64,000 nt of DNA from NCBI RefSeq assembly GCF_044647545.1, contig NZ_CP172818.1. The stretch is one strand, 5' to 3'. The notes under the pieces were generated by a model. That model worked only from the letters and a program-made list of their open reading frames with translations, searched no databases and had not been told where the DNA came from. This DNA comes from Escherichia coli. GTDB lineage: Bacteria > Pseudomonadota > Gammaproteobacteria > Enterobacterales > Enterobacteriaceae. Positions 9,869-12,197 of the stretch are shown here, one piece after another (the first letter of the stretch is position 1; the number at the start of each line of letters is the position of its first letter). The translations under genes were made by a program, and so were the position numbers.

Positions 9869-11341
9869 TCAGTTTATTTTTGTCAGCGCATAGCGATAAA
9901 AGTCACCGTCCGGCACGAACTCCAGACGATGGGTAATACAGGCAGGCGCATCTTCAGCGTGGTGCGAAACAAACAACAATTGCGTTTCACCTTCGCTAAT
10001 CAGCACATCAACAAAACGGCGGATAAGCTGGCGATTGAGCGGGTCCAGCCCCTGTAGTGGTTCATCGAGAATAAGCAACGTCGGATGTTTCACCAGTGCG
10101 CGGACGATCAGCGCCAGACGCTGCTGTCCCCAGGAAAGACTATGGAACGGAGCGTCAGCCGTGCGTTTATCAATACCGAGAATATCCAGCCACTGCTGCA
10201 CCAGTTTTTGCTGGCGATCCGAAACGGCCTGATAAATGCCAATCGAATCAAAATAGCCAGAAAGAATCACATTACGCACGGTAGTGCTGACCCGGTAATC
10301 CAGATGCAAACTACTGCTGACGTAACCGATATGCTTTTTGATATCCCAGATGGTTTCGCCGCTGCCGCGACGTCGTCCGAAAAGCGTCAAATCGTTGCTG
10401 TAACCTTGCGGATGATCGCCAGTAATCAGGCTTAATAACGTCGATTTTCCCGCGCCATTTGGCCCGACAATTTGCCAGTGTTCGCCTGGATTCACCTGCC
10501 AGCTAAGGTTATTAAGAATGGGGCGATCGTTATAAGAAACCACGCCGTTGTTCAGCACAATGCGCGGTTCGTTGGCGGGTAAGGCGTGACGTGCTGAAGG
10601 TTCATCCGGCTCCGGCAGTTGCACACCTTCAAGCTGTTCGCTATGTGCCAGTTGCGCGACGAGTGCTTGTTGGAGCAGTTCTTCTTTAGCGCCAGTTTCC
10701 GCTAACGTGCAATCCGCCAGCACGCCAGCAAACTGGACAAATTCTGGGATCTCATCGAAGCGATTGAGCACCAGTACCAGAGTAATACCGGACTGATGTA
10801 ACGAGGCGAGTAGCTCAGCCAGCTGCTGACGTGAGGCAACATCCAGGCCATCGAACGGCTCATCAAGAATCAACAAGTCAGGCTCCGACATCAGCGCCTG
10901 ACACAGCAGGGTTTTTCGCGTCTCGCCAGTGGAAAGGTATTTAAAGCGTCGGTCGAGGAGGGCGGTAATACCGAACTGCTGCGCCAGTTGCATGCAACGC
11001 GGAGTATCCTTTACTTCATCCTGAATGATCTCAGCCGTGGTACGCCCGGTGTCATCTTCGCCAGGACTAAGCATATCGGTGTTATTCCGCTGCCATTCGT
11101 CGCTGACGAGCTTTTGCAATTGCTCGAAGGAGAGACGAGTGATGTGGGAAAACTGGCTTTGCCGTTCACCTTTCAAAAGCGGAAGTTCCCCCGACAGCGC
11201 GCGGGCCAGCGCCGATTTCCCGCTTCCATTCGAACCGACAAACGCCCAACTATCACCCGCGTTTAACGTTAGCCGAGGCAATTGCAGCGTTTTTGTGTCG
11301 CCAAGACGAAACGTGCCTTGCAAAATTTGCAACGATGACAT
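9869..11341 (-). CDS. modF: tandem-domain ABC ATPase ModF (no permease domain)
   Basis: Two Walker A motifs ([17 protein letters not shown]) and two ABC signatures (LSTGETRK, LSWGQQRL) in one ORF; start chosen at MSSLQILQG. Confidence 0.9.
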   Translation of the reverse strand: MSSLQILQGTFRLGDTKTLQLPRLTLNAGDSWAFVGSNGSGKSALARALSGELPLLKGERQSQFSHITRLSFEQLQKLVSDEWQRNNTDMLSPGEDDTGRTTAEIIQDEVKDTPRCMQLAQQFGITALLDRRFKYLSTGETRKTLLCQALMSEPDLLILDEPFDGLDVASRQQLAELLASLHQSGITLVLVLNRFDEIPEFVQFAGVLADCTLAETGAKEELLQQALVAQLAHSEQLEGVQLPEPDEPSARHALPANEPRIVLNNGVVSYNDRPILNNLSWQVNPGEHWQIVGPNGAGKSTLLSLITGDHPQGYSNDLTLFGRRRGSGETIWDIKKHIGYVSSSLHLDYRVSTTVRNVILSGYFDSIGIYQAVSDRQQKLVQQWLDILGIDKRTADAPFHSLSWGQQRLALIVRALVKHPTLLILDEPLQGLDPLNRQLIRRFVDVLISEGETQLLFVSHHAEDAPACITHRLEFVPDGDFYRYALTKIN

Positions 11342-11408
11342 TTTATATCCCATTTTGTGCAGCGATTACTGACAGGGATACGTGTTTCATAACAAATTGT
11401 CAACACGC

Positions 11409-12197
11409 TTAGCACAGCGTGGCGATAATCACGCTGTCGGCATTAAAGTAGGCCGTGACATTCTGTCCTTGCTGAAGAGAAGTCGCTTCATTTACCGGCA
11501 CTGTGGCGCACAGTGTTTGCCCGTCGGGTAGCGCCATTAATACTTCGCACTGCTCTGCGCCGCGCTCAATATGACTAATAATACCCGGTAATTGGTTGTC
11601 AGCGTTTTGCGCGACCGCCTCGTCCTGAGTAATGCCTACCCACGGCGCTTTTAGCAATATCAACACTTCTTTGCCTTCATCCAGCCCCAGACGTGCGCCG
11701 CTTTGTGCGGTAATTGCGACTTTCAGGCGTGTTTTTCCATCAGCCAGTAAGACATCAACATGCTGTTGAACGTCATCATGATCGCGGGCGGTGATGGTAC
11801 CGAACCACTGGTTACGGGCGCTGGTTTGCAGTGAAAAACGTGAGATCGCGGCCAGCAGGCTGTTCAGCGGCAGGGCGTCATCGTCACTTAACACATCAAA
11901 GGCTTTTTGCTGGATTTGCGCCAGTAAGTCATAGAGCTGAATCAGTCGCTGACCATAGCGGGTCAGTACTGCGCCGCCGCCACCTTTACCGCCTGTTGCG
12001 CGCTCAACCAGAATATGCTCACTTAACTGATTCATCTCGTTAATGGCATCCCAGGCGCTTTTATAGCTGATACCGGCATCTTTCGCTCCCTGGCTAATGG
12101 AACCGGAAAGCGCAATGTGTTTTAGTAGCGAAATGCGGCGCGGGTCGGCGAATAATTTTTGTTGGAGCTTAAGGGTGAGAAGGATTTCGGCCTGCAT
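11409..12197 (-). CDS. modE: molybdate-responsive transcriptional regulator ModE
   Basis: 262-aa ORF with N-terminal HTH and C-terminal tandem Mop (molbindin) domains; position between modF and divergent modABC. Confidence 0.95.
   Translation of the reverse strand: MQAEILLTLKLQQKLFADPRRISLLKHIALSGSISQGAKDAGISYKSAWDAINEMNQLSEHILVERATGGKGGGGAVLTRYGQRLIQLYDLLAQIQQKAFDVLSDDDALPLNSLLAAISRFSLQTSARNQWFGTITARDHDDVQQHVDVLLADGKTRLKVAITAQSGARLGLDEGKEVLILLKAPWVGITQDEAVAQNADNQLPGIISHIERGAEQCEVLMALPDGQTLCATVPVNEATSLQQGQNVTAYFNADSVIIATLC

Follow-up and report, generated by a model that had tools for sequence, protein, structure and literature searches.

ModF of Escherichia coli, a membrane-less ABC ATPase with two dissimilar cassettes: architecture, relatives and gene neighbourhoods

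Introduction

The gene modF lies behind modE, the gene of a molybdate-responsive regulator, in a 64-kb window of Escherichia coli DNA (the window being the whole stretch analysed in this study). The protein carries two ATP-binding cassettes (ABC) and is annotated as a component of molybdate transport, which raises the question of what this ATPase works on. The reading favoured here, with moderate confidence, is that ModF is a cytosolic two-cassette ABC ATPase outside transport, an ATP-driven clamp on a soluble client, and neither the motor of the molybdate transporter ModABC nor an ABC-F factor. The gene, the architecture of its product, its operon partner and its orphan status are all already known and belong to the textbook annotation of E. 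coli. Since this annotation exists and the literature already recognises the function as unknown, the finding as such is not new. The initial annotation of the locus had likewise called the function unresolved, in agreement with the fact that no functional study was found in the literature that could be searched.

Architecture of ModF

The features of the gene and its product are the following (aa, amino acids; pI, isoelectric point; pLDDT, predicted local distance difference test):

9869-11341, minus strand: modF coding sequence, 490 aa plus the stop codon at 9869-9871 (open reading frame (ORF) list, RefSeq, NCBIfam NF008186)
10667-11341, minus strand: cassette 1, aa 1-225, with the motifs GSNGSGKS (Walker A, 11213-11236), LSTGE (signature) and LLILDE (Walker B), and with Asn in place of the H-loop His
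10556-10666, minus strand: inter-cassette linker, aa 226-262, short and acidic (pI 4.68), mean conservation 0.23, pLDDT 64-84
9872-10555, minus strand: cassette 2, aa 263-490, with the motifs GPNGAGKS (Walker A, 10442-10465), LSWGQ (signature) and LLILDE (Walker B, including E427), and with H460 in the H-loop
10232-10261, minus strand: family signature SGYFDSIGIY (consensus SGFFDSIGLY in the 62-member alignment), helical subdomain of cassette 2

Pfam assigns two ABC_tran domains and no other domain to ModF. A Kyte-Doolittle scan of the whole protein revealed no transmembrane segment: the peak hydrophobicity in a 19-residue window is 1.59 and belongs to a core beta-strand of cassette 1, whereas ModB reaches 2.25 with five transmembrane-like segments in the same test. 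Two full cassettes without a membrane domain, as described in the initial annotation, are thus confirmed by the domain search and by the hydropathy check that it had proposed. The ModF equivalog of NCBIfam, NF008186, matches residues 5-493 of the long ORF with 982.7 bits (cut-off 459).

An AlphaFold2 model generated from the 62-member alignment (pLDDT 91.7, predicted template modelling score 0.89) predicts that the two cassettes pack head to tail into a closed sandwich. The short linker, residues 219-260 of the model, contains only two short helices, part of it at lower confidence. In E. coli the linker comprises 37 aa with two K/R and six D/E, and its length ranges from 32 to 60 residues across the family; the pI of the whole protein is 5.4. 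Q-loop and signature are separated by 61 residues in cassette 1 and by 56 in the second cassette, without insertions, and the identity between the cassettes is 31%.

Conservation of the ATP sites

Conservation was counted in an alignment of 62 diverse members of the ModF family with 35-64% identity to the E. coli protein. The catalytic glutamate of cassette 2 (E427) is present in all of them, that of cassette 1 (E161) in 41. A similar distribution was found for the switch histidine of the H-loop, which is kept in 61 members in cassette 2 (H460) and in 16 at the H193 position of cassette 1, where E. coli has an asparagine. The A-loop tyrosine of cassette 2 (Tyr270) is found in 56 members and is aromatic in all 62; cassette 1 has no conserved aromatic residue at the corresponding place. 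Mean identity to E. coli amounts to 49% for cassette 2 and 33% for cassette 1. The position of the canonical Q-loop glutamine is occupied by Ser or Ala in both cassettes; two residues further on in cassette 2, Gln (31 members) or His (29 members, E. coli among them) is found.

This distribution suggests one consensus ATP site on cassette 2 and one degenerate site on cassette 1. ATP would be hydrolysed at the site formed by cassette 2 together with the signature motif of cassette 1, and the cassette 1 site would mainly bind ATP and keep the dimer together. One hydrolytic and one degenerate site are a pattern familiar from heterodimeric ABC exporters.

The family signature in the helical subdomain of cassette 2 is strongly conserved as well: S361 and G362 are invariant, and D365, G368 and Y370 each occur in 60-61 of the 62 members. 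A second family motif of cassette 2, RGSGESIWDIK, reads RGSGETIWDIK in E. coli. ModF of E. coli therefore contains both motifs, whose key residues are invariant or nearly so among the 62 proteins. The surface formed by SGFFDSIGLY is presumed to be a client-docking site, through which ATP-driven closing and opening might be passed on to a client that is not a membrane protein.

Comparison with known ABC classes

The initial annotation implied an analogy of ModF with soluble two-cassette ABC proteins, whose usual targets are nucleic acids or ribosomes. The comparisons made here did not support this analogy. ModF shares with the ABC-F proteins (EttA, Uup, YbiT, YheS and the antibiotic-resistance ABC-Fs) a soluble two-cassette chain of similar size and template modelling scores (TM-scores) of approximately 0.65-0.70, but it scores only 157.3 bits with the ABC-F model NF000355, far from the cut-off of 380. 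The linker of ABC-F proteins has about 60-100 aa, is basic and helical and carries the P-site tRNA interaction motif, in contrast to the 32-60 aa and the pI of 4.7 in ModF, which also lacks the arm insertion and probably has a catalytically degenerate cassette 1. The classification by hidden Markov models that had been suggested earlier thus placed ModF outside ABC-F and in an equivalog of its own. Identity with ABCE1 (RLI) was rejected as well, as Pfam detected neither an FeS nor a hinge domain and the N-terminus of ModF is directly cassette 1. UvrA, with about 940 aa compared to 490 in ModF, was rejected since its Zn-binding and DNA-/UvrB-binding insertions are missing.

In a Foldseek search against the PDB, the best matches of the ModF model were closed or ATP-bound tandem-cassette structures with TM-scores of 0.56-0.74. 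The top match was component A2, involved in activation of methyl-coenzyme M reductase (PDB 8S7V chain K, E = 8.7e-26, TM-score 0.72); Uup, EttA, mycobacterial DppD/OppD, ABCE1 and CFTR were found at similar scores, all matches having 11-21% identity. Because all tandem-cassette proteins match about equally, Foldseek cannot classify ModF, and component A2, at only 18% identity, has no specific sequence relationship to it. Component A2 and SufC, the latter a soluble ABC ATPase of Fe-S assembly which acts on protein complexes, illustrate the general mode proposed for ModF, an ATP-driven closure of a cassette dimer that would serve neither transport nor nucleic acids; SufC is named here as general background.

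Two ABC proteins encoded in the window itself offer a comparison. ModC shares with ModF an ABC cassette and the chromosomal neighbourhood, but combines a single cassette with a TOBE domain, and its gene shares an operon with those of a permease and a binding protein; local identity between the two is 31% over 181 aa. YbhF (44481-46232, minus strand, 583 aa; 24-28% identity to ModF) has two cassettes per chain and no transmembrane segment of its own, as ModF does. Unlike modF, which has no such partner, ybhF is directly followed by two ORFs with five transmembrane-like segments each (42238-44494). The ybhF locus (42238-46232, minus strand) shows the usual permease-linked arrangement and is an internal contrast to modF. 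Since ModF fails the ABC-F, ABCE1 and UvrA tests, has PDB 2IHY as the closest solved relative of its cassette 2 and is only 31% identical to ModC, it is considered a family of its own.

The ModF family

A full-library search with E below 1e-30 yielded 1602 clusters at the 50% identity level, and nearly all best matches are two-cassette proteins of 470-540 aa. The ModF family is distinct, widespread and ancient, and is defined by NF008186. The closest solved relative of cassette 2 is the orphan single-cassette ATPase PDB 2IHY of Staphylococcus aureus (115.6 bits), followed by ABCA transporters (ABCA4 and ABCA7, best 87.2 bits), PDB 4HZI (84.6 bits), FbpC and the ATPases of Mn/Zn importers; for cassette 1, no clear nearest relative was found. 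2IHY and 4HZI have an equivalent motif in the helical subdomain (VISGAFKSIGVY in 2IHY). Unlike ModF, which is a fused asymmetric pair, they are single cassettes of about 270-290 aa, whose presumed homodimers would have equal sites. The best NCBIfam model other than that of ModF is the zinc importer ATPase AztA (190.7 bits, cut-off 220). Taken together, the sequence relationships make the cassettes look transporter-derived rather than ABC-F-derived.

Some members deviate from the usual length. One protein of 610 aa (P0141) has an additional partial cassette at its N-terminus, and another of 704 aa (P0250) contains long low-complexity insertions in cassette 1 and linker. Nine members of about 400-430 aa (L117, L118, L128, L181, L189, L193, L195, L200 and L212) score approximately 360 bits with the family profile and possess the cassette 2 motif; in these, cassette 1 may be reduced. 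In one lineage (three clusters down to 63% identity, 24 contigs), a ModF-like protein is fused to a C-terminal MnmC-type S-adenosylmethionine-dependent methyltransferase domain, PF05430 (L097 at 5497-9250 and L002; P0229, P0334, P0335 and P0336). In the one cluster that was read, the upstream mutY and the fused gene overlap by 4 nucleotides (nt); ahead of mutY lies a NUDIX (mutT-like) gene, and genes of polyamine biosynthesis come next.

The family is also reported from fungi. Yeast YDR061W is named as the ModF counterpart in fungal papers; the assignment is theirs, as the sequences compared in this study did not include the yeast protein. In fungal ABC inventories, YDR061W/MODF appears as a soluble protein with two cassettes and no known function (PMC2848647, PMC6071951, PMC6112666, PMC8211738, PMC8742932), either unclassified or placed near ABC-G, and no membrane partner was found in these surveys (PMC2848647, PMC8211738).

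Absence of permease genes next to modF

Members of the family were collected by scanning metagenome contigs with a DNA pattern that was obtained by back-translation of the motif SG[FY][FY]D[ST][IV]GxY. The scan gave 120 loci, 116 of which are ModF-family genes and 101 of which exceed 330 bits; these 101 clear members fall into 71 clusters at 75% identity. As a control set, 51 loci of generic ABC ATPases were taken from a peptide-pattern scan of genome contigs made with the family alignment. That scan returned mostly generic ABC ATPases because the universal Walker A and B motifs made up two of its four patterns; its only true two-cassette members were L009 and L010, accompanied by three single-cassette relatives.

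An ORF with at least four transmembrane segments, as judged by hydropathy, adjoins 2 of 18 ModF loci compared to 28 of 51 control loci. The two membrane neighbours, an SstT-like symporter and an EptA-like transferase, are not ABC permeases. No ABC permease family was among the 25 most frequent Pfam families listed for 114 immediate and 88 second neighbours (202 in total), and no ABC permease adjoining a ModF-family gene was seen in about 80 non-redundant loci.

Several other neighbours were considered and rejected. Sulfatase (twice), queC/queE, dusB, rsmH, RNase T and prmA were judged to be cherry-picked and were not prominent in the census of 202 neighbours, where no RNA-related family besides PseudoU_synth_2 and SpoU_methylase (two members each) was counted as often as twice. 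A link to Fe-S proteins through MutY, IlvD, QueE and a radical-SAM sulfatase-maturing enzyme was dropped because the commonest neighbours, IlvC, LeuA and LeuB, are not Fe-S proteins. A Band_7/SPFH gene adjoins ModF-family genes repeatedly, in 3 of the 114 immediate neighbours and in L003 (2397-3795), where an NfeD gene follows.

Link to the molybdate genes

In E. coli, modF is located on the strand opposite to modABC, behind modE, and the ATPase gene of modABC is modC. Pfam detected a TOBE/Mop domain in ModC and ModE and none in ModF. Gene context was read individually for 12 loci of family members. Orthologues of Enterobacteriaceae with 85-89% identity keep the order modE, modF. In a 65%-identical orthologue (L089, 4600-6470), modF lies between the divergent acrZ-modABC and galTKM; modE and galE are absent there, so that this modF must have its own promoter. 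Copies of Aeromonadales (57% and 52% identity) are not linked to any mod gene, and mod genes are not adjacent in copies of Desulfobacterota-type, Spirochaetia and Bacteroidota either; the more distant copies were found among unrelated genes. Altogether, modE adjoins modF in 1 of the 71 family clusters, the one of Enterobacterales. The position behind modE is an Enterobacterales-specific gene order and the source of the molybdate name.

The analysis of domains, neighbourhoods and literature revealed no evidence tying ModF to molybdate transport. In 1996, Grunden and colleagues reportedly found modF mutants to be without a molybdate phenotype. E. coli BL21(DE3) is viable in the absence of modABC, modE and modF. 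Excess molybdate combined with plasmids carrying modE and fnr, without modF, relieved the molybdoenzyme defects of this strain in part (PMC3149613). As had been suspected in the initial annotation, the transport label is probably misleading: ModC completes ModABC, linkage to mod genes is confined to one lineage, and no ABC permease neighbours were seen.

Genes of branched-chain amino-acid biosynthesis next to modF

The commonest immediate neighbours of ModF-family genes encode IlvC (ketol-acid reductoisomerase, five members), LeuB (isopropylmalate dehydrogenase, four) and LeuA (isopropylmalate synthase, three). With labels assigned by phmmer, ilvC, leuA or leuB directly adjoins the ModF-family gene at 9 of 70 non-redundant loci, and none of the 51 controls has such a neighbour. 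Within three genes, ilvC, leuA, leuB or ilvD was found in 12 of 70 loci compared to 0 of 51 (Fisher p = 0.0012; binomial P = 5e-13 with 4 genes in 3000 as the background). After coarser clustering, the signal amounts to 9 of 50 clusters at 60% identity and 5 of 24 at 50%.

The order leuA-modF-leuB-ilvD on one strand, with gaps of -13 to 124 nt, occurs at three loci, one of which (L123) has an extra ORF before ilvD. Their ModF proteins share 44-51% identity, and the nearest named relatives of the one that was searched belong to Chitinophagaceae and Sphingobacteriales; the lineages are regarded as Bacteroidota of the Chitinophagaceae type. In one further lineage, modF follows leuB after 6 nt. 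Three other loci, one of them assigned to Pseudomonadales, have modF downstream of ilvC on the same strand with gaps of 45-66 nt; these lineages are gammaproteobacterial-type. Two more loci have ilvC divergent or nearby, and a spirochaete copy of modF is convergent with ilvC. A single-cassette relative in Fundicoccus (Lactobacillales), matching 2IHY with 183 bits, is located between ilvC and leuA. The full order there, ilvD-ilvB-ilvN-ilvC-[ABC]-x-leuA-leuB, is read from ORF size and order, only ilvC, leuA and leuB being labelled by the search. A similar ABC-like ORF without a function is said to have been described in the early 1990s in the leu-ilv operon of Lactococcus lactis.

This association is a lead and not a function, and it is the sole recurrent lead obtained by comparative genomics. 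It is also the one result of this study that a specialist might not expect.

Function of ModF

For a clamp on a soluble client, as favoured here, several points are unfavourable. The cassettes are no less similar to transporter cassettes (AztA, ABCA, energy-coupling factor (ECF) transporters, Zn/Mn importers) than to those of known soluble ABC proteins, and a conserved surface in the helical subdomain is equally expected where the coupling helix of a permease docks. The unequal ATP sites are deduced from residue conservation only, and the ilv/leu association covers about 13-20% of the sampled lineages, E. coli not being among them. In a rival reading, ModF would be the orphan energising subunit of a distantly encoded permease with an unknown substrate. 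Such a role is possible, albeit doubtful. It would agree with the similarity of cassette 2, after 2IHY, to ABCA4, ABCA7, FbpC and the Mn/Zn importers, with the AztA score (190.7 of the 220 bits of the cut-off), and with a conserved motif that, to judge from its position in the sequence relative to the Q-loop, lies in the docking zone of the coupling helix. It is opposed by the lack of any adjoining ABC permease in about 80 non-redundant loci, when 55% of the controls have a multi-transmembrane neighbour, by the replacement of the canonical Q-loop glutamine by Ser/Ala in both cassettes, and by fungal surveys in which no matching membrane component appeared (PMC2848647).

A role on ribosomes, tRNA or DNA in the manner of the ABC-F, ABCE or UvrA classes appears unlikely. 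In its favour, ModF has tandem cassettes without a membrane domain and an old name, photorepair protein PhrA, and Foldseek lists Uup, EttA, YbiT and ABCE1, although among many equal matches. The fusion to the MnmC-type methyltransferase, with its overlap with mutY, is the sole hint that points to nucleic acids; it is limited to one small lineage, and queC/queE, dusB and rsmH, which occur near some copies, were chosen by eye and are not significant in the census. The failed ABC-F model, the acidic linker of 32-60 residues without an arm insertion, the acidity of the whole protein and the absence of FeS, hinge, Zn-finger and DNA-binding modules argue against such a role. A molybdenum-specific function, either as an accessory ATPase for ModE and molybdate handling or as an alternative ATPase for ModB, is most improbable. 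The genes are indeed arranged suggestively, modF following modE co-directionally after 67 nt with the divergent modABC nearby, an order kept in E. coli, Salmonella and Trabulsiella, and the 65%-identical orthologue still lies beside modABC. Linkage in 1 of 71 lineages and its absence in Aeromonadales and the other sampled phyla stand against this function, as do the missing TOBE/Mop domain and the mere 31% local identity to ModC. Furthermore, fungal papers report the family in Saccharomyces cerevisiae, an organism which is not known to have molybdoenzymes.

If ModF is a clamp on a soluble client, the ilv/leu genes might indicate where to look for it. The ModF family and its single-cassette sisters of the 2IHY type could be accessory ATPases of branched-chain amino-acid biosynthesis, the E. 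coli copy having been relocated behind modE; this proposal is tentative and, at present, rather improbable. The ATPase would assemble, activate, repair or regulate an enzyme of the pathway, or handle an intermediate. In yeast, Ilv2, Ilv5, Ilv3 and Leu4 act in mitochondria. YDR061W is part of a long list of proteins from a pull-down of the mitochondrial Nfs1 (PMC5675994), which may be taken as support for such an accessory role.

The modE-modF locus and its surroundings

The stretch from 9869 to 12197 on the minus strand comprises exactly modF and modE. The neighbouring features are:

11342-11408, minus strand: modE-modF spacer, 67 nt, containing TTGACA-N17-TATCCC (11375-11403) and, as ribosome-binding site, GGGA (three-species alignment)
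11409-12197, minus strand: modE coding sequence, 262 aa, molybdate-responsive regulator with a helix-turn-helix and two TOBE/Mop domains (Pfam; NCBIfam NF007957, 509.8 bits; RefSeq)
12326-12475, plus strand: acrZ, 49-aa ORF between modE and modA (RefSeq; shorter than the default ORF size)
12642-15165, plus strand: modABC operon, divergent from modE-modF (ORF list, RefSeq)
14107-15165, plus strand: modC, ATPase of ModABC (ORF list)

Positions 9600-12700 are 100% identical to many E. coli chromosomes, and the region was found in 5390 of 5426 complete E. coli genomes. RefSeq gives the order galE (minus), modF (minus), modE (minus), acrZ (plus), modABC (plus) on identical sequence; together with the ORF coordinates, this supports the earlier statement that modF is placed beside modE rather than within modABC. 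The longest possible modF ORF begins at 11353. The annotated start at 11341 is preferred because the upstream ATG is not conserved, reading ACG in Trabulsiella. The dN/dS ratio of modF is 0.04 against Salmonella and 0.04-0.06 against Salmonella and Trabulsiella, equal to that of modE; modF is a working gene under strong purifying selection.

The genes modE and modF are co-directional, and the same order is found in Salmonella and Trabulsiella. A terminator scan of the 67-nt gap revealed no terminator-like site between them, and the arrangement is compatible with a single operon. In the scan of 9500-12700 for terminators and promoters, match counts were not above those of shuffled sequence, and a hairpin in the spacer did not reach significance (z = -1.88, with 11 of 200 shuffled sequences folding equally well). 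The block TTGACA-N17-TATCCC is identical in the alignment of E. coli, Salmonella and Trabulsiella and occurs once in the window (0.01 expected). Because it is kept while the flanking bases differ, a separate modF promoter is possible; the block could serve modF as an internal promoter or as the site of a regulator. Co-transcription with modE may therefore account for only part of modF expression.

Some further elements of the window were recorded. A terminator-like hairpin with a T-run is located at 12482-12505, directly 3' of acrZ. A molybdenum cofactor (Moco) riboswitch, a known element, lies at 34146-34290 (plus strand) just 5' of a moaA-like ORF (103.4 bits, gathering score 36) and is a second molybdenum-linked control point in the window. 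A match to the small RNA family ES036 (CssrF) of Rfam is found at 49544-49586 on the minus strand (43.3 bits, gathering score 37.6).

Significance

Nearly every E. coli genome carries modF, purifying selection on the gene is strong, and relatives are found across bacterial phyla and in fungi. In automated annotation, all of the family still goes by the name 'molybdate ABC transporter ATP-binding protein', which rests on the gene order of one clade. The apparent asymmetric catalytic design of ModF, together with the placement of its relatives among ilv and leu genes, would correct a widely propagated annotation and make an old orphan testable.

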